DNA of 64,000 nt from Bryobacterales bacterium (GCA_965207255.1 OZ242276.1:2081916-2145915), one strand, 5' to 3'; counted from the first letter of the stretch, positions 4,402 through 47,583 are shown. Numbers and translations: made by a program. Notes: generated by a model from the letters alone, not told the origin.

Positions 4402-6609
4402 GTGTCCGTCCGGGCCGTCGTCGCTAGCCTTGCGCTGTCGCTCTTGGGCGGGTCTCTTGCGGCCCCCGCGCAGGATCAGAACGCGCGCCTAGTCGACCAG
4501 ATCACGCAGCTCGTCTCCTCCCAGCGCGGAATCAGGATCTACGACTGGGTCAATTTCGCGATCAAAGACGGCCACGTCACCCTGACAGGCGCGGTCACAA
4601 ACCGAACGCTCAAGCGTGGGATCGCACGGTCGATACTTGCGCTTGAAGCGGTCGATTCGGTAGCGAACGAGCTGGAGCTGCTGTCATCGTCGGGCGACGA
4701 CATCGGAATCCGGATCAATGCGTACTGGCGCATCTACGGGCATCCCGAAATCCGGCGGTATGCATCCCAGCAGTCGGAGTTCAGGCAGCGCCTCCGACGC
4801 TCGCCCACTGACATCCAACGGGTGTTGCTCGAACCGATCCACATCCTAGTCGAAGACCGTCACTTGACGCTTGAGGGCGAATTGGAGCAACAGCGCGAAA
4901 AGTGGGTGGTGGAAGAGCAGGCCTACGCCGTCCTGGGCGTCAGCTCGGTGACCAACAATATCGTCGTTACAGGTACCGACACTGAGGAACTAGAACCTAT
5001 CGACTTCGAGAAGGACCCCTGGTGGAGAGACTCCGGCTCCGTCGCGGAGTCGGTTGTGCGGGTCGAGAACCCGGCTGGCGCGATTCGCGTGAGGGTAGTC
5101 AATACCGAGCGCGTGCGCCTGCGCAGAACCAGCCGCTCGCGGCCGATCCGAGCAGGAGACACGACGACGACGCGACTGGCACGCAAGACGAGGATCAGCG
5201 CCAGTCCAGCTGACGGTGCGCAGATCGATTTGGAGATCGACCTGCCCTATGGACACCGCTTGGAGGTCGAGACCGTGGACGGCCCGATCTCGGTCACTGG
5301 GCTGATCCGACAGGCGGACCTCAAGACCAGCTTCGGACGGGTCGAGCTGGCCGTCCCGTGGAAGGCAGTTAGGTTTGCCGCGGCCCTGAGCCGCAAACCC
5401 GCCCATGTTGGCATCCCACCGCACCTGCGCGCCTCGTTGAGCTCACCCGAGGAGCCTGTTGTGGAATCCGCTTGGCACGTTGATGACCTCCGCGACCAGC
5501 GCCAGAGTCTGTATGGAAAGATCCGTTTGGAAGGGGTGCGGCCGGACGCGCTCGTCCTGCGGGAATCCGCCATCCCAGAGGACTCTCCGATCAGGATGCA
5601 TTGGCAAGCCACCCAGACGCTCAGCACGATGTTGAAGCGACCATTTCGCATGCGCATGACCCGCCGCGATGGCGGCCAGCAGCCGACTGACGAGATGCCG
5701 TCCGAAGAGCAAGATCAGACAGTTCGATTCAATTCCGATGTCCGCTTGGTCCAGCTGTCGGCCTCCGTGGTGGACGCAGAGGGCAGGCCCGTTCCAGGTT
5801 TGGCGCGGGAGAGCTTCGAAGTGCTCGAGGACGGAGTGGCACAGGAAATCGGGATCGTGCAGGACAACGAAGCGGAGTTCAATCTGATCCTGTTGTTGGA
5901 CTGCAGCACCAGCACCCTCGTGGACCGCACGGCAGTGCTGGAAGCTGCAAGGCAATTTGTAATGGCCGCGCGGCCAACCGACCAAGTCGGGATTTACGTA
6001 CTCTCGGATGCCTACCTGCAGGTGGTCAGCCCGCTCACGGAAGATCGAGAGGCGCTATTGCGCACGATTGAACAGATCCCGAGGCTGTCAGGCGGTACGC
6101 CGCTCTACGACGCGATCACCCTCGCGTATGCCCAAGAGCTGGCGCGACGGCGGTGGGAACGGAATGCCTTGGTTGTCATCAGCGATGGCATGGACAATGA
6201 CCTGCTGACTAGAAGGGGGCGTTCGGTCCCGTCCGCTGTCGCGTTCGAGGATCTGTTGCGGGCAGCGTCCGAGATCAACAGCGCAATCTATCCGATCTTC
6301 CTCGAACCTGACGAGCCGGGGGTGAGGGTCGAGCGCAGTTGGCGCGAACGGCAGCGTCAGTCGACCGACAAGGCTCGCGACCGGATGCAGCAGTTGGCTG
6401 ACCGAACGGGGGGACGGCTCTTCCGAGCAAGCTCTATTGGCGACCTTGACGCGGTATACGAGCAAGTTGCCGAGGAGTTGCGCAGCATTTACACGCTGGG
6501 CTACTACCCATCCAATCAAGAGTTCGACGGAGAATGGCGGCGGATCCGGGTCAATCTCAAGGGTCACAATGCCAGAGTCCGCACGCGGCCGGGATACTAC
6601 GGCTGGTGA
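4402..6609 (+). CDS. secreted BON-domain + VWFA-domain protein (acidobacterial VWFA-related type)
   Basis: It has a GTG start, a signal peptide and N-terminal BON-like repeats (IKDGHVTLTGAV...). The C-terminal VWA region (LLLDCSTS...VVISDGMDN) ends in the ...YTLGYYPSN...WRRIRVNLKG..ARVRTRPGYYG tail typical of TIGR03436-like proteins. Confidence 0.8.
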   Translation: MSVRAVVASLALSLLGGSLAAPAQDQNARLVDQITQLVSSQRGIRIYDWVNFAIKDGHVTLTGAVTNRTLKRGIARSILALEAVDSVANELELLSSSGDDIGIRINAYWRIYGHPEIRRYASQQSEFRQRLRRSPTDIQRVLLEPIHILVEDRHLTLEGELEQQREKWVVEEQAYAVLGVSSVTNNIVVTGTDTEELEPIDFEKDPWWRDSGSVAESVVRVENPAGAIRVRVVNTERVRLRRTSRSRPIRAGDTTTTRLARKTRISASPADGAQIDLEIDLPYGHRLEVETVDGPISVTGLIRQADLKTSFGRVELAVPWKAVRFAAALSRKPAHVGIPPHLRASLSSPEEPVVESAWHVDDLRDQRQSLYGKIRLEGVRPDALVLRESAIPEDSPIRMHWQATQTLSTMLKRPFRMRMTRRDGGQQPTDEMPSEEQDQTVRFNSDVRLVQLSASVVDAEGRPVPGLARESFEVLEDGVAQEIGIVQDNEAEFNLILLLDCSTSTLVDRTAVLEAARQFVMAARPTDQVGIYVLSDAYLQVVSPLTEDREALLRTIEQIPRLSGGTPLYDAITLAYAQELARRRWERNALVVISDGMDNDLLTRRGRSVPSAVAFEDLLRAASEINSAIYPIFLEPDEPGVRVERSWRERQRQSTDKARDRMQQLADRTGGRLFRASSIGDLDAVYEQVAEELRSIYTLGYYPSNQEFDGEWRRIRVNLKGHNARVRTRPGYYGW

Positions 6610-6789
6610 GCGAACACTAAGAGGCCGTGAATTCGGCGTCGAAGACCGCTTGCAGACCCCCCCTCCCCTGAGATGTTGCCGGTACGCGTTAATGCTGCTA
6701 GCCGAACTCGAAACTTACGCCCTATTCGTAGAAGGGCCGCATTGATCACTTTCTCGTTGTGACACCCTGACCGCCCGAGGGATATTGTT

Positions 6790-8574
6790 TTATTCACTCT
6801 TGCTGCTGTCAGGAATGCTCTGTCGAGCGAGATTCTCTGTGCGCAGAGGGTCTCCAGTCTGACGCATGAGGTCGATCAGACCAGCCGTAAATCCCGCGAT
6901 CTCGCCCGGTGACCCCTCCCTTACAACTTTCCGCAGTGCCTTCCCAACAATTCTGTCGTCATCCCTGCGGTCTGCCACATAGCGTAGAGCGCGCCCTAAG
7001 TCAAGACCGTCCAACGTGCCTGACCTGTGTGGTTCGATTGAAGTACTCTCTTTGCGAGTTGGTGGAGTTCCGTCCTCTGCTTTGAGACTTCCGCGAGATA
7101 CCTGAAGGTCTCCGTGGGCTTCTAGTAGCTCTCGCCCTCGGGGTGAGGTTCCGGAGGGCTCTGCAATACTCTCTGAAGCAGTCTCAAGTTCCCTGCGGCG
7201 CTTGATCAGCAAGGTCTGGCCAATCGCCAGCTTGAGCCATTGCCAGTTGAACTGCTTCAACGGAGATTGAATCGGTTCACTCATGGCCTCGGCACGCCCC
7301 AATCCACGAACATACAATCCGCCGTCCTCCAAGATCGCAAGCGAGTCCGCCCGAGTCCTCGGCGGTGACCAATGCAACAGATCCGGATAGTCATGGCTCG
7401 GAGGCTGCCCGCCTGAGGCAATTTCCGATAGGCGAGCCGCTTCGGCGCGAAAGAGTTGGGCATCCAAGACGTCAATCGGGGGCTCGGATTCGGCAGTTAT
7501 CCCAAGAATTGCACCCGCCATCGTCGCTATCGAGTCGGTGTCAGTACCAATAGCGTTCGCCGCGACCTGCAATGACTCTTTGGGCCGCGGTTCGCACCAA
7601 GTCAAGGCGGTGGCGGCCACCGCTGTGAGTATTCCGCTACCTCGCCGAGCCGGATCTTGAAGCCCAAGACGCTCCACGATTGCGCCGTATCGCTCAGCCC
7701 CTGAACCATCGGTCGGAATCTCTCGAGCGCAGTCGATTGCATCCCGCGCATCGGCAACCGCTTGGGACCATCCCGCGTTGAATGATCCCGACTCCCGCTC
7801 AAATACACCAAGCCAGTACGTTCCGACCTCCCGGTCAGATTTAATAATCTTCGGAAGGCTTGCAGCAATTTCAACGCATTGCGAGAGGTCGGCTGGGGAA
7901 GGGCTGCGGCCGGAATTCAAGGTCCAAGCTAGCGCCAAGGAGTGGAGGACCGAACCCATGAGCCCAGTCGGGTGCGAGTGGGTGCAAACGGTATTTCGGA
8001 TTACATCGAGTAGGAAACTATCGGCATCGCCTGGAGAAGCCGCTGCCCAGATGTGCGGCTGCACGCGCATAGCCGCACCATTCCCTCCCGAATTGGCCCA
8101 TCCCTTGAACGTATTGGCAAACCACGAAACGTTGGGCTTGGCCAAGTGCTCTGCTGCGGTACTTGTCGCACGGCCTCCTCCAAGCCCGTAACTAAGCCAA
8201 ACCGGGAGTTCAACCTTAGCGAAGACCTCCACGTCGAAGCCATCGGGCCCTATCGCCCGCCCAGTCGCGAGGCGCAATTGCGAATCGTCCGAATAGCAAC
8301 CTCTGGGCAGGGTAGCCGTGACGCCCGTGCGCCCACCGATCCGCCGGCCCCATTCAATGGGCGTGCGAAGCGGTTCGCCGGAAGTTCGCCGCGCAAGGCC
8401 ACGGGCATCGGTCAGTTCGCTGATCCATCCGAGTGCATCGCCGTACGCTGCCCAAAGCCCCGACCGCTCCACCTTGATTCGATGGTCGCCAACCTCTGAC
8501 GCCTTCGTAGCAACATTCAACGGTCCGGCACAGCCAGTCGGGGCGTTATTGGAGAATAAGCCACGGCTCGTCAT
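6790..8574 (-). CDS. ADP-ribosylglycohydrolase (DraG/ARH family) with a C-terminal extension of about 200 aa
   Basis: ARH signatures are present: YGDALGWISE, CYSDDSQLRLA, GGNGAAMRVQPH, GTDTDSIATMAGAILG. The start was chosen at ATG 8574 because it forms an ATGA overlap with the stop (8571) of the upstream gene. The ORF-track extension to 8691 would overlap that gene. Confidence 0.85.
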   Translation of the reverse strand: MTSRGLFSNNAPTGCAGPLNVATKASEVGDHRIKVERSGLWAAYGDALGWISELTDARGLARRTSGEPLRTPIEWGRRIGGRTGVTATLPRGCYSDDSQLRLATGRAIGPDGFDVEVFAKVELPVWLSYGLGGGRATSTAAEHLAKPNVSWFANTFKGWANSGGNGAAMRVQPHIWAAASPGDADSFLLDVIRNTVCTHSHPTGLMGSVLHSLALAWTLNSGRSPSPADLSQCVEIAASLPKIIKSDREVGTYWLGVFERESGSFNAGWSQAVADARDAIDCAREIPTDGSGAERYGAIVERLGLQDPARRGSGILTAVAATALTWCEPRPKESLQVAANAIGTDTDSIATMAGAILGITAESEPPIDVLDAQLFRAEAARLSEIASGGQPPSHDYPDLLHWSPPRTRADSLAILEDGGLYVRGLGRAEAMSEPIQSPLKQFNWQWLKLAIGQTLLIKRRRELETASESIAEPSGTSPRGRELLEAHGDLQVSRGSLKAEDGTPPTRKESTSIEPHRSGTLDGLDLGRALRYVADRRDDDRIVGKALRKVVREGSPGEIAGFTAGLIDLMRQTGDPLRTENLARQSIPDSSKSE

Positions 8575-9260
8575 TGGAACACCTCCGGGGCATAGCTCAC
8601 CCCGACATCCAACTGAAGACCGGCGAGAGATCCTCGAATTTGGTCCACGGCATCCTCGCTCTGGACGTAAATTCGCTGGAGATGCTTGCACGACAACTCG
8701 CCCGGGTATAGAACCTCGGCCTGCCTATCCGTGGGCCATCCCAGCTGTTTATCGGATCGGCTGTGGGCTTGCCCGTAGCGACCAACCACGCTGTCCGCGA
8801 ACATGCGTTGGAAGCCGGCCAGGCCCTCGAATCGAAGGCAGGAGGGATAAATGTTATTTGTGGTCGTGAAGACCACTCCTGGATGAGCCAGAATCCGAGG
8901 TAAGAATGACAGAACAACCCATGGGTTCTTGTCAGCTGCATGCCATTTCCTCGAGCTATCGAACATCCAGTCGTTTATGCGTTCTATCGAGAGACTAACA
9001 TAGTCCAACCATTGTTGATCCTTCCGGAAGTCAGTGTTGGGTCTGTATACATGTTCCAGATAGCTGTCATGCGGCAGTCGGCTTCGACTCTTCAGGGCAC
9101 CAGAGGCCAGCACACCCACACAACCACTGAACGTGGTGAAGTGAACTACGCTAGTTATCCCGACTCGCTTCGCAGCCGCTAGGACCTCTGGGCATCTCGG
9201 CAGGGAGGCGATCTCGTGAGGTGCTCGAGGAATCGCCTGATGCAATGATTCCGCGGACAT
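8571..9260 (-). CDS. DarT-like (DUF4433-like) ADP-ribosyltransferase candidate
   Basis: The order of motifs resembles DarT: VVHFTTFSG (H-x-T), LDYVSLS, VVFTTTNN, TDRQAEVLYPGEL..IYV (catalytic-Glu strand). It sits between the helicase and ARH genes with a 4-nt gap and a 4-nt overlap. The assignment is by eye only. Confidence 0.5.
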   Translation of the reverse strand: MSAESLHQAIPRAPHEIASLPRCPEVLAAAKRVGITSVVHFTTFSGCVGVLASGALKSRSRLPHDSYLEHVYRPNTDFRKDQQWLDYVSLSIERINDWMFDSSRKWHAADKNPWVVLSFLPRILAHPGVVFTTTNNIYPSCLRFEGLAGFQRMFADSVVGRYGQAHSRSDKQLGWPTDRQAEVLYPGELSCKHLQRIYVQSEDAVDQIRGSLAGLQLDVGVSYAPEVFQ

Positions 9261-9264
9261 GAAA

Positions 9265-10665
9265 CTAAACCTCCACCAATGTATAGGTGTCCGGGTCTAG
9301 CAGGTCGATCACCGTCGACTGCTCTCCGGGCTTGTAGCCAACCGAGACGGTCTTGCGGGCCCGTCCAACAGCCATCGCAACGAGTCGACGCAAGGATTGA
9401 AGAGTACCATCGCCATCCTCTCCGCCGTGTGGAGTGACCTCTTGATTGATCCCGGGCAAGAGCACATGGTCGAATTCAAGGCCCTTTGCAGAATGGATGG
9501 TGGACAGCGCCACGAGTTCGGGACCGCTTGGCCATTCACGCTGTCGAGTCAGTTCGCAAAACGGAATATCCCTTTGGTTGAGGGCCTGACGGGCAAATGA
9601 GAACCAGCCACCGCCGAGAGGGTGCAGGATCGCGACGGTCTCGCCAGCGTTCAGATTGGGTTGAACCCGTCGCAACATCTGGTCTAACTGCGCGCCATAG
9701 CGACCCGCCACTACCTCAGGGGTTTGCCCCTCCTCCTGACACGCGTTCTCATCGGGCGCTACACCGTCCTCCTCTTGAGGCAGCCCGGCAAGCAGGGACC
9801 GGGCAAACCGGGCGATCTCCTTCGTATTGCGATGGTTACGTGAGAGCGTGAAGACCATTTCTGGCCTCAACTCAATGCCGAGTTCTCTCCATTGGAACCC
9901 CTGCGGATAGATTCTCTGTGCGGCATCAATAATGAATGTAGTTACGTGATCTTGTTCTAGGTGTGAAAGTACGGCACGGAGCTGATTCGCAGAAAGGTCC
10001 TGCGTCTCGTCCACAACTACAACGTCGTATCGTTGACTCTTTGCGTGGGCGACTTCAACGGCAATATCGTTCCAATCAACTTGTCCATCGGCTCGTTTTC
10101 GTTTCTTGTACGGTTCGATCACTTGGGTGAGCAGCCTTGTCCTAGTCTGCTTGTTGACGGCAGGTGCCCTGCCCCGTCCGGTGCGTAACGCGTCGATGTA
10201 CAGTTCCCGAGCATCGGCCGGGAAACGCCCTAAAACGTATTCAATCTCGTCGATGAAGTAATTCATATCCTTCGCACGCACACCGACCTGCCCCAACAGC
10301 TCAGTAAGGATCTCATTTCGATCATTGATGAGATCTCTGCTGCCTAGAAGTGACAAGGCCCATTGAGCGAAGGTCTCTACTGTCAAGTCGAGTCCTGAAT
10401 TGGAACCGACCTGTTCCTGCGCAAGCTGCTTGACATATCCCCGCAATGTCCGATTGAACGTTAGCACTAGAACCTTGACGGGCTGGTCGGAACGTAGGCG
10501 TTGCCTCCGGCTCAGGCGCGAAGCACAGAGTTGGCGAAGCCGTAACAGGGCTGCAGTGGTCTTGCCGCTGCCAGCGGCCCCTCGAATGAGACGGAATCCC
10601 AGCCCTGCATCCGTCAAGATCGGAAGTTGTTCGGGGGTAGGCTTGACTTGCTGTAGGACGCGCAC
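9265..10665 (-). CDS. compact UvrD/Rep-like superfamily-1 helicase (466 aa)
   Basis: It has a GTG start. SF1 motifs are present: GAAGSGKTT (Walker A), VLVLTFNRTL, VVVDETQDL (motif II), FIIDAAQRIY, SRNHRNTKEI, STIHSAKGLEFDHVLL, VAMAVGRARKTVSV. No extra nuclease domain is evident. Confidence 0.85.
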   Translation of the reverse strand: MRVLQQVKPTPEQLPILTDAGLGFRLIRGAAGSGKTTAALLRLRQLCASRLSRRQRLRSDQPVKVLVLTFNRTLRGYVKQLAQEQVGSNSGLDLTVETFAQWALSLLGSRDLINDRNEILTELLGQVGVRAKDMNYFIDEIEYVLGRFPADARELYIDALRTGRGRAPAVNKQTRTRLLTQVIEPYKKRKRADGQVDWNDIAVEVAHAKSQRYDVVVVDETQDLSANQLRAVLSHLEQDHVTTFIIDAAQRIYPQGFQWRELGIELRPEMVFTLSRNHRNTKEIARFARSLLAGLPQEEDGVAPDENACQEEGQTPEVVAGRYGAQLDQMLRRVQPNLNAGETVAILHPLGGGWFSFARQALNQRDIPFCELTRQREWPSGPELVALSTIHSAKGLEFDHVLLPGINQEVTPHGGEDGDGTLQSLRRLVAMAVGRARKTVSVGYKPGEQSTVIDLLDPDTYTLVEV

Positions 10666-11435
10666 CTAACTCTTCAGCCCGATTGGGGCACTAGCCGTCG
10701 CTTGCTGGACGCTACTGCTGGCGCACCCTGTGGCAGCACACGATGCTGCTCAACTACAAAGCACCGCTAATCAAGTCAGATCAACTGACTCTACCGTTGC
10801 TGCTGGGGTGCAAACACTATAGCACCGGATTGTTCGAGAGGCGGAATTGCGGCCTCGGCTGCGCCGTAAGGCGCGAATGTCTCGCGGCACCGCGCCCTAG
10901 GCCCGGCGGCGCTGGGCGCGGACGAAGCCTTCGACACGGCCGTGTCTCGGGGCAATTCGGAACCGACGAACAATATGCCTAAGCGATGATTCAGGAGCGG
11001 TGGCTAGCTTACAGTGACCCGTCTACGGCCATTAGAAACACCGCACCTCACCACCAAGAGGGGCTTCCTGTGAATCCGCTCCAAGCACCGGCTTTCGGTG
11101 ACCGCCGACTCCGAGATTGCGACCGACTTTGGCATACCCGCCCGTTGCGTCGTCGAGAGTGATGAGTGGACGAACCGTTCGGTGTGATTGAGGCCGCCCA
11201 CGACGCTCGTGGACGGCACTGGACAATTCACGTGCTGGACGATGGCTTGGCGGTGCGCCTAGCCGGAACGGTCGGCACAGGTGGGGCGGCCGTTGTGCGG
11301 ACCGGCGTTCCTGAACGAAACGCCTGCACAGAACGCCTCGGCCCGAATCGCGACATCCTCAATACCAGATTTAATGTATACTGATGTGTATAGATTAGCT
11401 GCCACTGTCGAGTGGTGCTAGTCGTCGAGCGATCC

Positions 11436-36024: not shown

Positions 36025-36897
36025 TCAGTCAACTCGATGCTGCAGGCACTGATGGAATTCCTCCATTGCGAGGACGGCATCCGCGGCAAGTGTTGTTGGA
36101 TCGATCTCTGGATGCTCGATCCGCATCTGCTCGGCATAAGCCCGAGGGCCTTGCGCACTGATGACCGCGAAGTTCGCCCAGAGATCATCGAACGCAGTCT
36201 TGATCGCATCAATCTCGTCACCAAAGCGATCCAGCACAAGAGTGGCTGCGACTGAAGCGCCGCCTGCGTCGTTGTGCAGGAGAACAAATGCGATGTCGTA
36301 CCAGTCCTTTGGCTTGCGTCGCGAGAACGCTGCTGCTGCCTTGGCTAGGAGGAATCCTGCGACACCCGCGATGTTCACTTCGACCCGGTGGGTAACTCCC
36401 CCGATTCGAGCACTTAGCTGACGGGCTTCGGCGTCGCGAGACGCGAATCTTGTGCCTCGTAGGTTAAGGGCCCCAAGATTGTCGCACTCGTCAAACGCGA
36501 TCGTCACCCCTGAGCGGGTGCTGCTTAGATCGGCAAGCAGCTCGAATTTCACTACAGTCGGAACAATTGGCCCTTCGGCTCGCCAAGACCAGATCTGCCC
36601 TTTCCCCGGGACGAACTCAGCGTTACGAAGCGCTCGTTCAAGTCGGGCTGTGTTCACGGTGCCGCATGCGATCTCAAGATCAACTTGGACGTCAACGTCG
36701 GTCGTGCCTGCATGCTTGAACTCACTTTCTGCGCATAGCAGCTCAGGAACCAACCCTCCAAGGACTACGAACTCCGGCCGCTCGCCATAGTGATGGACGA
36801 TGCGGACGAGCGCCGCTTCCGCCGCGTCGCGAGCAACCCGCGACCGAAGAGGGTCGCTTCCCGGTCTCGAATCACCGCGGTCAGAATGGAATATCAT
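36025..36897 (-). CDS. nucleotidyltransferase-fold protein, AbiEii/DUF1814-like (candidate)
   Basis: The ATG at 36897 overlaps the HerA 3' end by 17 nt. It has the minimal NTase pattern FVVLGGLVPELL...HAGTTDVDVQVDLE and a later KPKDWYDIAFVL segment like AbiEii-family toxins. Confidence 0.45.
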   Translation of the reverse strand: MIFHSDRGDSRPGSDPLRSRVARDAAEAALVRIVHHYGERPEFVVLGGLVPELLCAESEFKHAGTTDVDVQVDLEIACGTVNTARLERALRNAEFVPGKGQIWSWRAEGPIVPTVVKFELLADLSSTRSGVTIAFDECDNLGALNLRGTRFASRDAEARQLSARIGGVTHRVEVNIAGVAGFLLAKAAAAFSRRKPKDWYDIAFVLLHNDAGGASVAATLVLDRFGDEIDAIKTAFDDLWANFAVISAQGPRAYAEQMRIEHPEIDPTTLAADAVLAMEEFHQCLQHRVD

Positions 36898-38716
36898 CGT
36901 CGTTGTCGAGCAGCGCGGGTCTGGCAGCATTCGGAACTGTTGCAGGCTGTGTCGGGACTGCACCCCCTGTGTTGGTCGGGGCGGGGCTGGCCCATACCGA
37001 GAAATCGGGATCGGTCGATTCCGGCACCGGTTCCGCAACTGGCGCAACTACTCGGACCGGCATCGCAACGCTGCTGCCAAAAATAACCGCCTGCTGCCTT
37101 GGAAGACCGGCAATTCGGTCAAGTTCCTGTCGATCAACCCACTCCCCAGCCGCGCTCACTACTCGGAGATCTTGTTCGGACGTCAATCGGAATACGGCCC
37201 AAGTCCCACATTGTGCAAGCACAGTGGGGGATATCTCGGCGGGACGCTGAGTGCTAACCCACATGGAGATACCGAACTTGCGACCCTCCTTAGCCAGTCT
37301 CTCGTAGGCCAACATTGACTGGGGAGCATCATCCCCCGAAACGATTTGTCTCAGATAGTGATGAGCCTCCTCCAATACCAATAAGGTCGGGTGCGTTGCT
37401 CCTTGGCCCTGTCGAAATCGCTCGAACGCAAGCAGCTCCAGTAGGGCGCCAAGGATTACTGGAAGAAGATCATGGGCGACGTTGCGGAGATTCACTATAT
37501 GGAGTTTCCACTGATCCTGAGCCCCGCCGAAGATCTGTGTGACCAGATCCGAGGACTCAGTCTGCCAATCCAGTGAGCCGCGACTAACTGGCGGACCACC
37601 ATTGACATCGACTACCGCCGTGAACAACGGGTCCTCCGAATGACGGTGAATGCGCGTTATTAGGGGAGCGACGTTTCCGTATTGAAAAGCGCTTCTCTCG
37701 GGGCCATTCCTCCCTGGCTGTAGACAGTGGCTGTCTGCAGCTAGACACGCCAAGGCTCGCATGTGGGGCCGTACTTGGGCTTGATTGGCTGGATTGGTCC
37801 TGAGATTATCAATCGCCTGCTGAGCCTCAACGCTAGCCCCGGGTCGGCAATCGTCGAATAGCACGGCCGCGTTAGCACCAGCAAGCCCGACTCCCTTGGT
37901 GTCCGGGAACCACTTCACATAGCGCAGGCTCTGTAATGCAAAATTAAGTGCCGGTCGCTGGGTTCTCTCGCTCGGAAGCAATAGTCGTCCCAGGCCATGC
38001 CTCCCGAGAGCCACATACGGAATCCGGAGGTTCGCGTTTCGACCGCCAAGGACTGAGATCTTGGTCTCACCGGGGCCACTAGCATGGGGCGAGAACGCTT
38101 GCTGGTACTCGCCATTGATGTCAAACACCACCACTCGCGCACGCTGCCGGCTGAGCATCTGCTGCACGGCCGCCGCAGTAAAGCAACTCTTCCCTTGGCC
38201 AGTCCCACCGAGAACTGCCACATGTCGGCTCAGTAGCCCCGCGAGTGAAACTTCTAACGCGCCGCCACCTCGAACATCCTCTCCTAACCGAATTGTGTCC
38301 CTTCCTTCTGAGGCTTGCTTGAGAATTGCGCCCAGCTCGTCGAGCGACAACGGAAGGGCTTCGGCTCCAAGGGCAGGTGCCAGAAGTGAGTCCGCCAAGA
38401 ACTGTGGCCCCTTAGCGTTTCGCGTGAGCGATCCCACCACCACGGCTTCGATGTGCCGCAACGGCTCTCCACTTGCCGATGTCGAGCCGACCCCGGCTCG
38501 ATGTGCTTCACGCGGCTCAGCGAACGACAAGGAGCGAACCCTCATCACTAGGAGCCTGGTTCCACCATCCACCCCAAAGAGACCCCCAACGTCCGTTACT
38601 CCGGTCACGCCCTCTCGGTGCGAAGCAATGTGGCCTTTGTGAGTGTCTCGCAAATTGAGTGTGACCCTCGACCCGTCGATAGAGACGACATAGGCAAACG
38701 GCTCGCGCCCGTTCAC
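36881..38716 (-). CDS. HerA-like (DUF87) ATPase, partner of SIR2
   Basis: The GTG start forms a GTGA overlap with the SIR2 stop. It has Walker A VLGGTGQGKS and Walker B HPTLLVLEEAHHYL. Its 611-aa size is typical for HerA of SIR2-HerA systems. Confidence 0.85.
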   Translation of the reverse strand: MNGREPFAYVVSIDGSRVTLNLRDTHKGHIASHREGVTGVTDVGGLFGVDGGTRLLVMRVRSLSFAEPREAHRAGVGSTSASGEPLRHIEAVVVGSLTRNAKGPQFLADSLLAPALGAEALPLSLDELGAILKQASEGRDTIRLGEDVRGGGALEVSLAGLLSRHVAVLGGTGQGKSCFTAAAVQQMLSRQRARVVVFDINGEYQQAFSPHASGPGETKISVLGGRNANLRIPYVALGRHGLGRLLLPSERTQRPALNFALQSLRYVKWFPDTKGVGLAGANAAVLFDDCRPGASVEAQQAIDNLRTNPANQAQVRPHMRALACLAADSHCLQPGRNGPERSAFQYGNVAPLITRIHRHSEDPLFTAVVDVNGGPPVSRGSLDWQTESSDLVTQIFGGAQDQWKLHIVNLRNVAHDLLPVILGALLELLAFERFRQGQGATHPTLLVLEEAHHYLRQIVSGDDAPQSMLAYERLAKEGRKFGISMWVSTQRPAEISPTVLAQCGTWAVFRLTSEQDLRVVSAAGEWVDRQELDRIAGLPRQQAVIFGSSVAMPVRVVAPVAEPVPESTDPDFSVWASPAPTNTGGAVPTQPATVPNAARPALLDNDDDIPF

Positions 38717-39428
38717 GTAATACCTCCGGAACGGGGTGTTGACGAGTCGAATAGCTCCCGATTCTTCTTGAACATGTCATGGATCTGTGCGGTCTGCTCG
38801 TCGTAGATGACCGGGTCCGGCAAGTGATTCACAAACGCGCTAAAGTACGCATCCGTATGGCCTCCGACGATGGTTACCTGGGGGAGTTCGAGCCCGATTA
38901 AGCGTTGTGCCCAATGGTTGCAATCATCGAGAACAAGCGAATCTTCATCGCGGCGCGCCTCCGGAAGATAGAGCACAAGTTGCAAGGTCGGGTTCTGAAG
39001 TGCACTCGCAAGGATTCTGTTCAAATGCTCGTCCGCGAACGAGTAGCCATTTGTGATGAGGCAGCTTTGTGGTCGAGCCAGGAACTCGGTAAACCTACGA
39101 AAGAGTTCGCCGAATACGAACCCGACAGTCTGCATATACTTCGCAGCGCTGGGGTAGACGAGGTTTCCGGCCAAGTCTTCAACTCCCCCGGTGATGAAGC
39201 TGCGAATGTGAGGCCAGAGGTACGCGGTTGAGAATTCCTCGACCGTTGCGTCCTTAGCGATACGCCATGTGAGAGAGCCATGGAGCTTAGCCAGGTAGAC
39301 GTTATACGAGCCGAAGCGCGCCTCCCCACGCGCAAGCACGTTTCGATAGCCAAGGTCAAAATTGTGAGGCGAGAAAACTCGACGATGAAGTCCAGCGAAG
39401 CCGCTTGTGACCTTGAGGCCTATCGTTT
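38713..39428 (-). pseudogene. SIR2-family (SIR2_2) defence gene, C-terminal fragment, split by an IS
   Basis: After the TSD the frame continues ...TIGLKVTSGFAGLHRRVF...LAKLHGSLTW...TNGYSFADEHLNRIL. It joins seamlessly to the N-terminal fragment at 40839-41423 to give a protein of about 430 aa. Confidence 0.8.
39421..39428. repeat. 8-bp target-site duplication TATCGTTT (left)
   Basis: It is identical to 40839-40846 and immediately flanks the IS inverted repeat. Confidence 0.85.
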
Positions 39429-39552
39429 GGGGCTTATATACAATCCTAACCAAAGCCACCAATTTTGCTTGTAGGAAAAACCTGCGCAATCCATCTCTAA
39501 ATCATTGATTGCGCTTGACTTGTGAAGCTGTAGTGGTTACCATAGTAGTGTT

Positions 39553-40548
39553 ATGAGAACACGCCGGAAACACGACCATCCGGGCCCGGGCAAGGCCCGC
39601 CGCAAGGGCATTTCCATCGTGCAGCTGATCAGGCTTTTCCCAGACGACCAGCACGCCGAGGATTGGATTGCCGCGCTGCGCTGGCCAAACGGCCCGAGCT
39701 GCCCGCACTGCGGCTCCACGAACGTGCAGTCTGGCGCCAAGCATCCGAACATGAGCTATCGCTGCCGGAAGTGCCGCAAGTTCTTCTCGGTGCGGACCGG
39801 CACGGTCATGCAGAACTCGAACCTCGGTGCCCAGAAGTGGGTCATCGCGGCCTACATGCTGACAACCAATCTGAAGGGCGACTCCAGCATGAAGTTGCAC
39901 CGCGATCTGGACATCACGCAGAAATCGGCCTGGCACCTGGCACATCGCATCCGCGAGACCTGGGACCGCAGCGAGGGGCGCTTCGAGGGGCCTGTCGAGG
40001 TCGACGAGACCTATCTGGGCGGCAAGCGCAAGAACATGCCAAAGCATGTTCGCGAGCAGCTGACGGGGCGCGGCCCGGTCGGCAAGGCGGCGGTTGTGGG
40101 CGCTCGCGACCGCGCCACGAAGCGCGTCGTGGCCAAGGCCGTGGAGGGCACCGACAAGCACACCCTGCAAGGCTTCGTCAAGAACTCTGCGGAGCGCCAC
40201 GCGACGGTCTATAGCGACGAGGCCAGTGCCTACGAGACACTGCCATTCGCGCATGAGGCCGTCCAGCACTCGGTCAGCGAGTATGTGCGCGGGCAGGCCC
40301 ACACCAATGGCGTGGAGTCGTTCTGGAGCATGCTTAAGCGCGGCTATGTGGGGACCTACCACAAGATGTCGCCGAAGCACCTGCAGCGCTACGTGAACGA
40401 ATTCTCGGGACGCCACAATGAGCGCCCGGCGGACACCTTGGAGCAGATGGAAGGCACCATGCTGCGGATGATCGGCAAGCGCCTGCGGTACCAGGATCTG
40501 AAGCGCGCCAACGGGCGGGATTCCGGGGCGCGGGAAATGGCGCTATGA
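39553..40548 (+). CDS. IS1595-family transposase (zinc-ribbon + ISXO2-like DDE domain)
   Basis: It has an N-terminal zinc ribbon CPHCGSTNVQSG...YRCRKCRKFF and a DDE region VEVDETYLGG...VYSDEASAY...HTNGVESFWSMLKRGYVGTYHKMSPKHLQRYVNEFSGRHN. Confidence 0.92.
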   Translation: MRTRRKHDHPGPGKARRKGISIVQLIRLFPDDQHAEDWIAALRWPNGPSCPHCGSTNVQSGAKHPNMSYRCRKCRKFFSVRTGTVMQNSNLGAQKWVIAAYMLTTNLKGDSSMKLHRDLDITQKSAWHLAHRIRETWDRSEGRFEGPVEVDETYLGGKRKNMPKHVREQLTGRGPVGKAAVVGARDRATKRVVAKAVEGTDKHTLQGFVKNSAERHATVYSDEASAYETLPFAHEAVQHSVSEYVRGQAHTNGVESFWSMLKRGYVGTYHKMSPKHLQRYVNEFSGRHNERPADTLEQMEGTMLRMIGKRLRYQDLKRANGRDSGAREMAL

Positions 40549-40783: not shown

Positions 40784-40838
40784 CCGCTTGCAATGAAATG
40801 AAAATTGGTTGCTTTGGTTAGGATTGTATATAAGCCCC

Positions 40839-40846
40839 TATCGTTT
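40839..40846. repeat. 8-bp target-site duplication TATCGTTT (right)
   Basis: It is identical to 39421-39428 and immediately flanks the right IR. Confidence 0.85.
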
Positions 40847-41423
40847 CCGCTGCCCATTCAACCGCGACATCGTAGTTCGTCGTGAATACCCACGGACCCG
40901 GTTGACCCGGTTGCCGCGCAGCCGTGAGCTTACGCAAGAGCTGGCGGTGGCTCGTCAACTGCTCACAACTCATGTCGACCATCGAGGGTAGCTCCCACCA
41001 TGACCGTTGGAGAAGGGAAGCGAGGATGACCGATCGCAGCACGTCAGCTCGCGTTCGAGTCAGTTGCTGGAGCTTCCGGGGTCGCTCTACTCGCTCCCAC
41101 TCAAGCCTCGTGATCTCCAGATCATCAATGAGCTTTTCGACATCGCCATCCGCATTCCCAGCCGCAAAGCCCTCATTTCGAAGCCAGTCGGCGCTCGATC
41201 CGAATTCTGACTGGAAATGACTCCAGACCTCGGCCATAGTCCGGCCCCCTAGTGGCCCTATTGACGCCCCAGCACCGAGAAGAACTCCCACGTTCTCGAG
41301 ACGGAGCACCGCTGCCAAGTGCGCCGCGAGTCCCTCTGGCGTGAGCCACTGACTTCCCCGCCGCGCACAAATCGACTCGTCGTTTGAGGAGGTCGGCTTG
41401 GATGGAGGGATCAACGGTGTCAT
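40839..41423 (-). pseudogene. SIR2-family (SIR2_2) defence gene, N-terminal fragment
   Basis: It reads MTPLIPP...VGVLLGAGASIGPLGG (Rossmann GAGxS) ...VFTTNYDVAVEWAAETI, then runs 7 codons into the IS and stops at 40818. Confidence 0.8.
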
Positions 41424-43027: not shown

Positions 43028-44584
43028 ATGAACACATTCTGGAATTCTGGCGACCGCGAAAAGATAGGAGGTCTCGACATCCTCGGCTTAAGACAGCTCG
43101 ATCAAGGGCTCGAAAGTCAATGGGTATCCGGAATAACGACAATCTCGTTTCGCGCGCGGTACTTGACACTCTTGCCCTGGGCCCTGGTGGAATTCTTCGA
43201 GCATGAGCTCAGGCAAGGAGACGGAACGGGCGTCTTTGACGATAGCCGGCTAAGTGAAGTTCTTGCACGTCTCAAGTTCGTTATTCTGGCCGCAACTGCA
43301 ACGGGTAGAGAGCGGGGCGAGTCCGGCGACACCTTCGGCGTCTTGGGCTCTCAACTCTGGTCCGAGCAATTGGACGAGTTTACGAGGAGTGGAAAACTCC
43401 AATTGCCATCCAGTCGTGGCAATGACGTTTACGGCACCTACGTGATGCCATGCAGAGGATTCGGCCTGCTGGCTGGCTCGCAGCGCAGTAGCGATGGAGT
43501 GCCCGTGGTCATTACTCCAAGGGGACGAGATCTACACAAGACTCGGACACCGTTAGAGGGGTGTGAGACGATCCGGTCTCTGGTGCACAACGGAGGGACG
43601 CTATCAGTTGACCACTTGAGAGACGCCGGACGCCACTTCTCCGTGAATGGCCTCCGAGACGGGAACAAGGAACGAGAGCGGCTCATTCAATGGATGTTTG
43701 AGCCCTACGAACGCCGTACGGATGTAACCAGGGTGTACAGTCAGTTCCATGACACAACTAGGTGGGCTGCGGGATTCGTAAGAGACAACGAAATGTCTCC
43801 AGAAGATCTGATTGCGGCGAACTTTCACCGTGTAGCCGGATCTGATCCTGAATCGGTACTGCCTGTCGAGCTGGCGTGGATGGAATACGACCTCCGCAGA
43901 AGGGTCCACTTCGCCTGTGAGCTGCTGCTCGCCGATGTGGCTGGGACCCTCGAGGACCTCGCGTCGGGAACGGTTGATGATGTCGTAAACCGCTGGACGT
44001 CTGTTGAGGGAATCTCACCCGCCGTTCGTAGAGCACTAGGCGTCGAACACCCAATGATGGCCAATACTCTGGCCGACTTGGTGGGCCGGATGCCCGAATC
44101 AGCATTCGGTGCTGGAAGCCTCAACATACGGGAGGGCCGAAATCAAGAGGTGGGAGGCAACCGTGCCCTGTACGGCCTTGGGCTGCTAATCGCCTGCTGG
44201 CGTTGTTCAGCACAGCTTCGCGACGCTGGACTACTGAAGAATCGTAAACATTACATGGAGAAGGCCTTTGATCTGATCGGCAGGAATCGCTCAAGACCCC
44301 TTTCTCACGCAATGCGCGAACTTGCCCTTTACTTGGCCGTCGAACCTCACCTCGTAGCGACGCTAAGGAAGATGGGCCAAGGGCAGAAGTGCTCATTGCG
44401 GTTCTTTCCCGAAGGTTCTGTCCTTCAACCAACTGGAACTGGCGTGACTCCTGGCTTCAGTGGCAGCCGGCTAGGCAACGTGCTCGGCGTGCTGGCAGAC
44501 GTAGGCTTGTTTGAACGATTACCCGGGAGGCGATTCAAATTGACCGAGGCTGGCCACGACAAGTTGTTGAGGAATCTCGCCTAA
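43028..44584 (+). CDS. hypothetical protein (518 aa), no family recognised, possible C-terminal wHTH
   Basis: It is a long ORF in a lower-GC region with no P-loop and no nuclease motif seen. The N-terminus is GGLDILGLRQLDQGLESQWVSGITTISFRARYLTLLPW and the C-terminus is GNVLGVLADVGLFERLPGRRFKLTEAGHDKLL. Its stop overlaps the start of the next gene (TAATG). Confidence 0.6.
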   Translation: MNTFWNSGDREKIGGLDILGLRQLDQGLESQWVSGITTISFRARYLTLLPWALVEFFEHELRQGDGTGVFDDSRLSEVLARLKFVILAATATGRERGESGDTFGVLGSQLWSEQLDEFTRSGKLQLPSSRGNDVYGTYVMPCRGFGLLAGSQRSSDGVPVVITPRGRDLHKTRTPLEGCETIRSLVHNGGTLSVDHLRDAGRHFSVNGLRDGNKERERLIQWMFEPYERRTDVTRVYSQFHDTTRWAAGFVRDNEMSPEDLIAANFHRVAGSDPESVLPVELAWMEYDLRRRVHFACELLLADVAGTLEDLASGTVDDVVNRWTSVEGISPAVRRALGVEHPMMANTLADLVGRMPESAFGAGSLNIREGRNQEVGGNRALYGLGLLIACWRCSAQLRDAGLLKNRKHYMEKAFDLIGRNRSRPLSHAMRELALYLAVEPHLVATLRKMGQGQKCSLRFFPEGSVLQPTGTGVTPGFSGSRLGNVLGVLADVGLFERLPGRRFKLTEAGHDKLLRNLA

Positions 44585-47310
44585 TGCGCCATGACATTCT
44601 GAAGACGGTTAAGGATGCTCGCGACGTTACCAACGCTGTCATCCTCACGCACAACATAGATTTCGTCTTTGTCCAGTCTATCGTCGTCCCCGCCCTCGCG
44701 AAGTGCGGTTCGCCGAAGCTCACCATCTTTGCCGATGCGGAATGCGCAGCTCAAACCTACCAGTATCAGTCTCAGGTGCTGAGTAGCCTTGGCAAGCGTT
44801 ACCGCGTCGTGCCAGTCCAGATGCAAACGGGGTTCAGGTTCCATCCCAAGGCCCTAATGCTCTCCGGCCCAAACGCCGCCACGCTCCTTGTAGGAAGTGG
44901 CAACCTCACGTTCGGCGGATGGCGAGAAAACGGAGAAGTGTGGTGCAAGTTTGGTTCACAGGCGGAGGACATCGACATCTTCGGGGACTTCTACTCGTAT
45001 CTGCACCAAATACTTGACCTCTGCGCAAAACCACGTGACGCCATCGTCGCTGAAGTAGAGGAAGCATTCGATTCCAATACGAGGTCCTGGGCGACGAACC
45101 TACCTAGCACCGGGCGGCTACTTGGGCGCGCCGGCCAGGGTCCGTCATTGCTCCGGCAAATGAAGGCATCCATTGGCACGGATGAGGTCGAGCACCTCTA
45201 CATCTGTGCGCCGTACTTTGATGAAGATGCAGAGGCTGTGCATACGATCTCAGAAGAATTGAACGCGGATTCTACGACACTGCTACTTCAAAGCAAGTAC
45301 ACGAACCTCCCTTCCGAGGCCGCAGCGGGTCTTGGACCACGGTTCAGGATCAGGGCGGCTACCTACAAGTACAAGCAATCTACTGACTCTGACGATCAGC
45401 CCCGGCCCCGCAATGCACCCCTGCATGCCAAGTTCTACGGGATTCAACATAGCGGGCGCGTGACGGTTTTTCTCGGCAGCGCGAACTGCTCCCGATCTGC
45501 TCTAACGATCCCCGGTCGCTTCGGTAATTCCGAGTTGATGGCTCGTATCACCATGACAGCTGACGAGTTCCAAAGCGAGCTCTTGGACGAAATCGCGATC
45601 CAAGACGAAGGGCCGGAACTTCCAAGCGAGGTTCCTAATCTACCTTCCGCCAACGATGAGACCGCGTTCATCCGGATCCTTGCTGCTCGGATGGAGCTAG
45701 GCAACATACGCGTTACGTTTCAGGCCAGCACGGGAACGGCAATACTTCGCGCCCTTCTCGACGGGGTAGCCATCGATCCGGTTGAAGTCGGCCAGAGTTG
45801 GGCCCAGTTCAAGACCAACCAACATCCGAGCATCTTGATGCTGGTTGGAAGGCACGACGACACTGAGGTGCGTTCCCTACCACACTGGATCGATGACGAA
45901 CCTGCCTTGCGAGATTCGGCCCGAGCCCGATCGCTCGTAGGCTCAATTCAAGATAAGGTGCGTCCAAGCGTTTGGGGGGTTGGCGCTTGGACGGACGTAT
46001 TGTCAGAACTCTATAGGCACCTGCAGTACATACCCTCCGTAACCACTAGTCGTAGCCCTCACATCCCAGAAGGACGCGAAGCTCAAGCGGGACCGGTGGA
46101 GTTCGAGTGGAGCGACGTATTTTCTGATGGTTACGGCCTACCAACAAGATCTAGAGCGGCCACGAGACTATGGGAGCACATAGAGGACCGGGTTGACAGC
46201 CTTCGGGCGATGCTGCTCCGTTACTTTGGATTCAAGCAGACAGAGCCTAGGGAGGACACTGAAAGAGGATCTGATGACATAGATCTACCAGACATAGTTC
46301 CGCCTGACGATGATGACGGCAGCCCTGTTGACACGGTCAAGCCCTTGCCCAAGGTCTTTCCTCGATCTGATCCGTCGACTGTGACCGAGAGGGAACGCAG
46401 GAGAGCTAGAAGTGTAGTGACTCAAGTGGTATCCAAACTTGCCGAGCCCGATTTCTTGAGCAAGCGTCCACTCGATGCTCTTACCGGGGATTTGAAAGTC
46501 CTTGCGATAATGCTTCGAGCCGGTCTTGCGGAGAAATGGTTTACAGATCAGGAGTATTTCAAGTCGGTATCGGGCGTATGGCTAGCATTATTCTTCAACG
46601 ATGCCGGTAGTCAAGACGCAGGGTGGCTGGAATGCCGATTTCGGACCGCACCCGACCAGAGAGCATTCGTTGACACAATTCGCTCGGCGGAACTCGCCGC
46701 GGCCCTCGGTTGCTTGGCTCTATCGACTCCGGAAAAGGCCACCGCTCTGGAGCACGTAAGGTTTGAACTAGCGTCCGCTCTCGGCGTCGCCCGGTTTCCG
46801 TGGCTTTGGCAGGACGGTGGCAACGAGCAGATCTCCCATGAGATCAGTGAACTCTTGAGGCACACCGTGCGAGGCAGTTGTCCCGACTGGACAAATGTCG
46901 AGCGGAGGTGGTTGACGCTTGTTCGAAGAGGCCGTGCCCTCCACCGTTTGGAGTCCGCGATCGCAAGGATCGGCATCGCCAAACTTCGAAGTCGTATCGG
47001 GCAGACGAATGTCGCGGCCGGCGAACTCCTGTGGCAGAATCCATATGGCTTCTGTGTCGCCAAAGAGGATCGCGACCGGGCCAGTATGCAGAGCGGCCCG
47101 GTACTTAAGCTCCAGCACGGTGACGAGGAGCAACGGTTTAAGGGGCGGTATTTGACACCGGTCTCGGGATTATTGGAGGAGGGTTTGCTAAGCGATGACG
47201 TGATGTCGGCAAGGGAGCGGTGGGAGCTGCTGCTGATGGTGGAGAAGCTGAAGATCAAGCCGAACTCAGATTGCGCGACCGCAAGATTAGGTGAGGCACC
47301 AGCACCATGA
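44584..47310 (+). CDS. PLD-superfamily (double HKD) nuclease/phosphodiesterase-like protein with a large uncharacterised C-terminal region (908 aa)
   Basis: Two HKD motifs are present: FHPKALMLSGPNAATLLVGSGNLT (His codon 44842) and LHAKFYGIQHSGRVTVFLGSANCS (His codon 45424). The remaining 570 aa or so have no recognisable motif. Confidence 0.8.
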   Translation: MRHDILKTVKDARDVTNAVILTHNIDFVFVQSIVVPALAKCGSPKLTIFADAECAAQTYQYQSQVLSSLGKRYRVVPVQMQTGFRFHPKALMLSGPNAATLLVGSGNLTFGGWRENGEVWCKFGSQAEDIDIFGDFYSYLHQILDLCAKPRDAIVAEVEEAFDSNTRSWATNLPSTGRLLGRAGQGPSLLRQMKASIGTDEVEHLYICAPYFDEDAEAVHTISEELNADSTTLLLQSKYTNLPSEAAAGLGPRFRIRAATYKYKQSTDSDDQPRPRNAPLHAKFYGIQHSGRVTVFLGSANCSRSALTIPGRFGNSELMARITMTADEFQSELLDEIAIQDEGPELPSEVPNLPSANDETAFIRILAARMELGNIRVTFQASTGTAILRALLDGVAIDPVEVGQSWAQFKTNQHPSILMLVGRHDDTEVRSLPHWIDDEPALRDSARARSLVGSIQDKVRPSVWGVGAWTDVLSELYRHLQYIPSVTTSRSPHIPEGREAQAGPVEFEWSDVFSDGYGLPTRSRAATRLWEHIEDRVDSLRAMLLRYFGFKQTEPREDTERGSDDIDLPDIVPPDDDDGSPVDTVKPLPKVFPRSDPSTVTERERRRARSVVTQVVSKLAEPDFLSKRPLDALTGDLKVLAIMLRAGLAEKWFTDQEYFKSVSGVWLALFFNDAGSQDAGWLECRFRTAPDQRAFVDTIRSAELAAALGCLALSTPEKATALEHVRFELASALGVARFPWLWQDGGNEQISHEISELLRHTVRGSCPDWTNVERRWLTLVRRGRALHRLESAIARIGIAKLRSRIGQTNVAAGELLWQNPYGFCVAKEDRDRASMQSGPVLKLQHGDEEQRFKGRYLTPVSGLLEEGLLSDDVMSARERWELLLMVEKLKIKPNSDCATARLGEAPAP

Positions 47311-47507: not shown

Positions 47508-47583
<76 letters not shown>

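Follow-up and report, generated by a model that had tools for sequence, protein, structure and literature searches.

DarHTG (Liu-DS3), described by Liu et al. (Nucleic Acids Res, April 2026; PMC13069673), is an anti-phage system made up of DarH, a UvrD-like helicase without domain 2B, the transferase DarT, and the antidote DarG3, which resembles archaeal and eukaryotic ADP-ribosylglycohydrolases (ARHs). In Escherichia coli it protects against the phages T4, T5, T7 and SSL_2009a in an abortive-infection-like manner, protection requires both the DarT active site and the ATP site of the helicase, and the ARH-like DarG3 is essential; the system is present in <0.5% of E. coli genomes and occurs in several phyla (PMC13069673). 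Here we analyse an operon of a helicase, a DarT-family ADP-ribosyltransferase and an ARH in a 64,000-nucleotide stretch of a Bryobacterales genome (GCA_965207255.1, OZ242276.1:2081916-2145915; the window, meaning the whole stretch). We are confident that this operon is an intact, horizontally acquired member of DarHTG, that is, a three-gene anti-phage system of the toxin-antitoxin type. An earlier reading of the locus, made from the DNA without database searches (the sequence-only reading), had proposed an undescribed system of helicase, DarT-like protein and ARH. Its functional interpretation, a helicase-coupled DarT toxin with an ARH antidote, stands on the family assignments of the three proteins and on their linkage in 79 of 80 loci, whereas its claim to a new system falls, the architecture having been published as DarHTG and validated in 2026. 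Our literature search found no paper besides PMC13069673 on the helicase-DarT-ARH architecture; the apparent 'DarT3/DarG3' of a Vibrio preprint proved to be superscript reference numbers and not protein names.

The homology that ties the window to DarHTG was established against the sole E. coli helicase-DarT-ARH module that we found. A tblastn search of plasmids returned a Salmonella plasmid annotated with a helicase, a DUF4433 protein and an ADP-ribosylglycohydrolase, and its 3.76-kb block recurs unchanged in the chromosome of E. coli, in 21 of 5,426 complete genomes, a frequency (0.39%) that agrees with the one published for DarHTG. All three proteins of the window are homologous to those of this module: the helicase is 40% identical over residues 1-466 (E=2.5e-123), and the DarT and the ARH, each aligned over essentially its full length, are 40% (E=2.6e-51) and 39% (E=1e-104) identical respectively. 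At the DNA level the operon matched no E. coli genome, and neither did the Dickeya copy when used as query. The E. coli module itself sits in an island rich in integrases and insertion sequences (IS), beside genes for a large P-loop NTPase and for CbtA/YeeU (toxin-antitoxin).

The layout is likewise that of DarHTG, with helicase, DarT and ARH in this order on one strand and in one operon. The TAG stop of the helicase is followed by TTTC and then by the DarT ATG at 9260, leaving a 4-nt gap, with GGAGG about 10 nt upstream of that ATG; the ARH start and the DarT stop overlap as ATGA at 8574/8571, read as 'ccaATGAcg'. The open reading frame (ORF) of the ARH is open over 6790-8691 on the minus strand, its 594-aa product beginning at the ATG at 8574. 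Judged by these junctions, the three genes are translationally coupled. Both junctions, which the sequence-only reading had described for its three minus-strand genes, could be read directly, and every peptide motif that it had quoted was recovered from the three translations. The dip in GC content that it had reported is real in direction and was overstated in size, the operon having 57.5% GC against 62.8-63.9% in its flanks, and not about 55% against about 72%. GC at third codon positions (GC3) gives the clearer contrast, at 0.60 in the operon and 0.75-0.88 in the flanks.

To ask how firmly the three genes belong together is to look beyond the window. When the DarT alignment was used to scan genomes, one for each species, 80 loci were found, in 79 of which a helicase lies directly upstream and an ARH directly downstream of DarT on the same strand; the lone exception stops at a contig edge. 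The three-gene linkage on which the sequence-only reading had staked its hypothesis is thus kept in other genomes. A fourth conserved gene was looked for and rejected, and the flanking genes vary between the loci. The hosts belong to at least eight phyla overall and include Acidobacteriota, Chloroflexota, Alpha-, Beta- and Gammaproteobacteria and Actinomycetota, and further Desulfobacterota, Planctomycetota, Spirochaetia and Binatia. Over 73-80 relatives the catalytic residues of all three enzymes are near-invariant. The clade to which the window's module belongs (L001-L037) shows 56-70% identity across Acidobacteriota, Chloroflexota, Alpha- and Gammaproteobacteria, Binatia and Spirochaetia, and its records are mostly metagenome-assembled genomes (MAGs) of similar record style; such identity over very distant phyla, mostly in MAGs of this kind, suggests recent exchange within a shared habitat. 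One Spirochaetia MAG (OZ253572.1) carries two helicase-DarT-ARH modules (L023 and L030) about 180 kb apart. In several loci (L029, L080, L036, L003-L005 and L028) the helicase is truncated or fragmented while DarT and ARH seem intact, which could be decay to a two-gene toxin-antitoxin remnant or could be errors of long-read MAG assembly.

The 229-aa protein was taken by the sequence-only reading for a DarT/DUF4433-like enzyme, and profile similarity to an ADP-ribosyltransferase was indeed found: it matches the Pfam family DarT (PF14487) at 2.4e-21 and 76.8 bits, over a cut-off of 22.5, and the PADLOC DarT model at 1.1e-7. It scores 19.1 bits on the NCBIfam toxin_DarT equivalog, where the cut-off is 150. 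Because it fails this equivalog we regard it, on its sequence, as a distinct DarT clade, nearer DarT1 than DarT2. An exact-sequence look-up returned no record of the protein. Its only solved relative is the DarT1 of E. coli C7 (8baq), matched at 3e-4 with the single sequence and at 5.6e-7 with a profile of 17 homologues; against the solved chains this profile found no further DarT chain even at E<=10, that of Thermus included. Schuller et al. 2023 (PMC11543638) defined the DarT1 residues R52, M71, N104 and E152, of which N104 coordinates the base and has H119 as its DarT2 counterpart. HMMER alignments place these four at R79, M99, N135 and E182 of the window's toxin, so that the transferase retains an intact catalytic glutamate (E182, equivalent to DarT1 E152), and the predicted catalytic set comprises H40, R79, Y87, M99, N135 and E182. 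H40, N135 and E182 are kept in 79/79 relatives and R79 in 78/79. Residues 1-33 form a conserved N-terminal extension of about 30 aa that is specific to the clade (consensus xPRxxEEIxxLPxCPEVLxAAERRG, with R12 invariant); the DarT of the E. coli type does without it.

For the helicase, the sequence-only reading had proposed a minimal superfamily 1 (SF1) UvrD enzyme with no nuclease domain. Pfam agrees, with matches to UvrD-helicase (6e-11) and UvrD_C (1.2e-12) and no nuclease domain detected in the scan. Walker A is GAAGSGKT (K35), motif II is DETQ (D219/E220) and motif VI is GRARK (R435), and these ATPase motifs are kept in 71-73 of 73 relatives. Aligned to PcrA, residues 23-291 correspond to 25-299 and residues 382-439 to 556-614. 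The stretch in between, which in PcrA holds domain 2B and runs to about 255 residues, is here about 90 residues long, some 155-165 fewer than at the domain 2B position of UvrD/PcrA. The UvrD_C match covers model positions 285-347 of 350 only, the last 63. This shortfall and the partial UvrD_C coverage indicate that the helicase lacks domain 2B, and with its conserved ATP-binding residues it would be a UvrD-family enzyme of the DarH kind. Its best PADLOC matches are the NERD+UvrD and GajB models at about 1e-21 (GajB 4e-21). The DarH homologue of E. coli AR_0128 (L082, 9001-10398) is named a '3'-5' exonuclease' by RefSeq/PGAP; since its 40%-identical homologue in the window shows no nuclease domain, the name looks like an annotation artefact.

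The antidote matches a single Pfam family, ADP_ribosyl_GH (6e-27), and neither a macro domain nor a NADAR domain was found in the Pfam scan. An ARH therefore occupies the position of DarG's usual macrodomain or NADAR domain, as the sequence-only reading had supposed for the macrodomain. The assignment of the 594-aa protein to the ARH family is borne out by structure prediction as well. An AlphaFold model from a 97-sequence alignment (predicted local distance difference test, pLDDT, 86.5; predicted template modelling score, pTM, 0.80) divides the protein into an ARH domain, a small beta-rich domain and a C-terminal helical bundle, with a linker between the last two that is predicted to be disordered. 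In Foldseek the top matches of this model, at E-values of 1e-8 to 1e-6, are human ARH3, MJ1187 of M. jannaschii, a Listeria ART-ARH immunity protein, DraG, ARH1 and Tri1; ARH3 and MJ1187 lead, and the modelled fold is thus like that of archaeal and eukaryotic ARHs, as described for DarG3. A fold search against viral proteins gave generic phage and giant-virus ARHs only, and Pfam recognises no family in the last 204 aa of the antidote. The residues of the metal and ADP-ribose site (D46, S95-D96-D97 and D345-T346-D347) are kept in 78-80 of 80 relatives, and from this near-invariance the antidote should be an active hydrolase.

That the operon is an acquisition can be seen from its surroundings. 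It lies between core genes, as the sequence-only reading had noted, which we identified: DnaJ and BON-VWA make up one flank, SufBCDS and Mrp the opposite one. The non-coding leader between helicase and sufB, likewise noted, measures 746 nt (10666-11411); none of its ORFs exceeds 79 aa, nothing in it matches Rfam, and neither a promoter nor a terminator could be made out convincingly. In the six closest Bryobacterales relatives (amino acid identity 97% for sufB and ~90% for dnaJ) only 144-145 bp separate BON-VWA from sufB, and the site lacks helicase, DarT and ARH alike; in the window the distance is 4,802 bp. Nucleotide homology with the relatives ends at 6609-6612 and returns at 11370-11373, and these breaks therefore delimit an inserted segment of which the leader upstream of the helicase is itself a part. 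Neither the leader nor the tail of the insertion resembles any other module-bearing locus, and at the ends of the inserted segment we found neither direct nor inverted flanking repeats, nor a target-site duplication. Other Bryobacterales genomes hold other cargo at the equivalent site: SoFic (~1e-111) in L097 and L108, the latter with a Type IIG restriction-modification enzyme and a fucosidase as well; PDC-S11, a PsyrT/ShosT-like phosphoribosyltransferase with a 184-aa partner, and an 876-aa protein in L091; and an IS66 transposase in L088. The site is thus a defence and accessory hotspot in Bryobacterales, which lends independent support to a defence role, and the operon behaves like mobile defence cargo. 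L090 is a further Bryobacterales locus showing the site to be variable. Just upstream of sufB, at ~11372-11400, lies a near-palindromic element, TTTAATGTATACTGATGTGTATAGATTAG, which is kept in the insertion-free relatives and is probably the native suf operator/promoter region.

How the system might work can be pictured from these parts. One transcript would yield all three proteins. In the uninfected cell DarG3 would hydrolyse the ADP-ribose added by DarT, keeping DarT harmless, and by analogy with DarG it probably also binds DarT by means of the additional domains at its C-terminus. Once a phage infects, DarT would need the ATP-dependent DarH in order to act, a requirement for the ATP site of the helicase having been shown in E. 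coli; DarH may make or expose the single-stranded DNA (ssDNA) substrate, or alternatively may sense phage replication intermediates and lift the inhibition. Drawing on NAD+, DarT would then transfer ADP-ribose to nucleic acid, bases in DNA being the likeliest target; phage replication would be blocked as a result, and the cell would stop growing or undergo abortive infection. The base is perhaps guanine, suggested by the DarT1-like Asn135/Arg79/Glu182 set: by residue alignment the active site appears nearer that of the guanine-specific DarT1 than that of the thymidine-specific DarT2. Taken together, a DarT that modifies a DNA base (maybe guanine), a DarG3 that is the first enzyme of the ARH fold to take ADP-ribose off a nucleobase and a 2B-less helicase that serves as an infection-gated switch delivering ssDNA make up a proposal that we put forward tentatively, giving it somewhat less than an even chance. 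If true, it would bring a third hydrolase superfamily into nucleic-acid de-ADP-ribosylation, and would concern the whole DarHTG family and not the window locus alone.

Several points weigh against assigning the operon to DarHTG with this mode of action. The E. coli reference module was equated with the tested Liu-DS3 by architecture and frequency, not by sequence, and the window copy is only ~40% identical to the E. coli type. The likeness of the toxin to DarT1 was drawn from sequence and profile alignment only, as the structure model that we built from 17 close homologues (pLDDT 39) is unusable. The immediate flanks are housekeeping genes and not a classical island, and PADLOC v2 has no model matching the ARH. 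As to the chemistry, Table 1 of a February 2026 survey of nucleic-acid ADP-ribosylation (PMC12945103) gives no ARH that removes base-linked ADP-ribose from DNA; going by that table, DarG3 must have an ARH activity not seen before, unless the target is something other than a base. This last point leads to the reading that the DarT-like enzyme modifies protein or RNA, be it a phage or host protein or the helicase, and that the ARH reverses a linkage of the Arg or Ser type, on the pattern of DraT/DraG, Tre1/Tri1 or the Listeria ART-ARH pair. The characterised ARH-fold enzymes covered by the same survey all act on protein-linked, phosphate-linked or free ADP-ribose and not on nucleobases, the nearest folds of the antidote (ARH3, DraG, ARH1, Tri1 and the Listeria ART-ARH immunity protein) fit such a target, and the toxin, at 19 bits, falls well short of the 150 that the NCBIfam DarT equivalog demands. 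We nevertheless think a protein or RNA target unlikely, as the transferase is clearly of the DarT family at 76.8 bits, keeps the DarT1 residues for base coordination and proton abstraction (N135 and R79) and is obligatorily linked to a DNA helicase, and as both characterised DarT clades act on DNA.

It might also be argued that the operon plays no part in phage defence in its Bryobacterales host and is either selfish, a toxin-antitoxin (addiction) module, or a means of controlling growth, much as DarTG of M. tuberculosis has been proposed to control replication and growth; that DarTG has been described as controlling growth and transcription (PMC12170906). The housekeeping flanks would suit this, as would the loci in which a broken helicase lies beside DarT and ARH, the state expected if toxin and antidote alone were self-maintaining; those breaks, however, may be long-read assembly errors. 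We hold such a module to be quite improbable, given the protection that the E. coli homologue affords against four phages, the status of the insertion site as a defence hotspot among sibling genomes and the strong conservation of the helicase's ATPase motifs across phyla. Least credible of all, and hardly to be entertained, is that the operon is a decaying, non-functional remnant of an old insertion. The inserted stretch upstream of the helicase, with its 704 nt free of any recognisable gene, RNA or promoter, and the neighbouring SIR2 defence gene split by an IS element might be read in that way, but the three ORFs are full length relative to their homologues, the catalytic residues are all intact and the coupling signals are preserved. 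Membership of DarHTG as an intact anti-phage system thus remains the reading that we adopt.

The SIR2 gene just mentioned belongs to a SIR2-HerA system 26 kb from the operon, whose presence counts in favour of the DarHTG reading. Still further along the window, a PLD-like protein adjoins an ORF of 518 aa that neither PADLOC nor Pfam recognises, and a tRNA-Ala gene follows a short way on. The coordinates of these and all other features are collected in Table 1.

Table 1. Features of the DarHTG operon, its insertion and the neighbouring defence genes in the window (window coordinates).
Feature	Position	Strand	Details
Helicase (DarH-type)	9265-10665	(-)	466 aa, GTG start
DarT-family ADP-ribosyltransferase (toxin)	8571-9260	(-)	229 aa
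ARH antidote (DarG3-type)	6790-8574	(-)	594 aa, ATG at 8574
ARH domain of antidote	7405-8487	(-)	~residues 30-390, AlphaFold model
Small beta-rich domain of antidote	7180-7353	(-)	~residues 408-465, AlphaFold model
C-terminal helical bundle of antidote	6820-6999	(-)	~residues 526-585, AlphaFold model
Inserted segment carrying operon	6613-11369	.	~4.76 kb; homology breakpoints against relatives
Tail of inserted segment	6613-6789	.	177 nt
Inserted non-coding stretch upstream of helicase	10666-11369	.	704 nt
HerA	36881-38716	(-)	full length, PADLOC 2.6e-250
SIR2, C-terminal half	38713-39489	(-)	model positions 180-404
IS1595-family transposase	39553-40548	(+)	DDE_Tnp_IS1595 and zinc-ribbon domains; splits SIR2
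SIR2, N-terminal half	40818-41423	(-)	model positions 3-185
PLD-like protein	44584-47310	(+)	908 aa; weak PADLOC ZacB match 2.2e-15
tRNA-Ala gene	47508-47583		

The value of this locus is confirmatory and contextual. It presents DarHTG as a self-contained three-gene cassette that moves between very distant phyla, here with an insertion delimited nearly to the base pair in a hotspot that holds other defence systems in sibling genomes. The residue comparison also sharpens two questions for the whole family, namely which base or substrate is modified and whether the ARH fold can reverse base-linked ADP-ribose.

Set beside the known systems, the operon shares features with several. Among solved structures the toxin comes closest to DarT1 (8baq), which belongs to the guanine-specific DarTG1. 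The R/M/N/E residues of the two proteins align, the base-coordinating Asn included; the relationship is distant, however (E ~1e-7 with a profile), and DarTG1 has a NADAR antitoxin where the window has an ARH fold, and has nothing to match the obligatory helicase. The thymidine-specific DarTG2 likewise pairs a DarT-family toxin with an antidote that removes ADP-ribose enzymatically, in a defence of the abortive-infection type, but the antidote in the window has no macrodomain and the toxin falls short of the NCBIfam DarT equivalog and has Asn where DarT2 has His119. The canonical DarTG1 and DarTG2 were accordingly rejected as identities for the operon: there is no macro or NADAR domain, the helicase is always present, and the equivalog score is 19.1 against 150 bits. 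Gabija also has an accessory SF1 ATPase within a defence operon, and GajB models are among the best PADLOC matches of the helicase; the window helicase is smaller, though, its partners are unrelated to those of Gabija and no GajA-type nuclease is present. Only the helicase matches GajB models and neither neighbour is GajA-like, so Gabija too was set aside. In DraT/DraG, Tre1/Tri1 and the Listeria ART-ARH pair (8za7) an ADP-ribosyltransferase is, as here, paired with an ARH-fold reversing or immunity enzyme; the transferase of the window is of the H-Y-E/DarT type and not R-S-E, and a helicase is added. A system of the DraT/DraG or Tre1/Tri1 type was rejected on scores of 15.9 against 337 bits for DraG and 13.7 against 490 for Tri1, the transferase being DarT-family. 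DarHTG alone offers the same three proteins in the same order and on the same strand, with full-length homology to the E. coli module. The window copy differs from that module in its host, a member of the Acidobacteriota (Bryobacterales), and in its identity of ~40%; the DarT of its clade has the extra conserved segment of ~30 aa at the N-terminus, its ARH protein is 33 aa longer than the E. coli type, and its genes are coupled more tightly, through the ATGA overlap.

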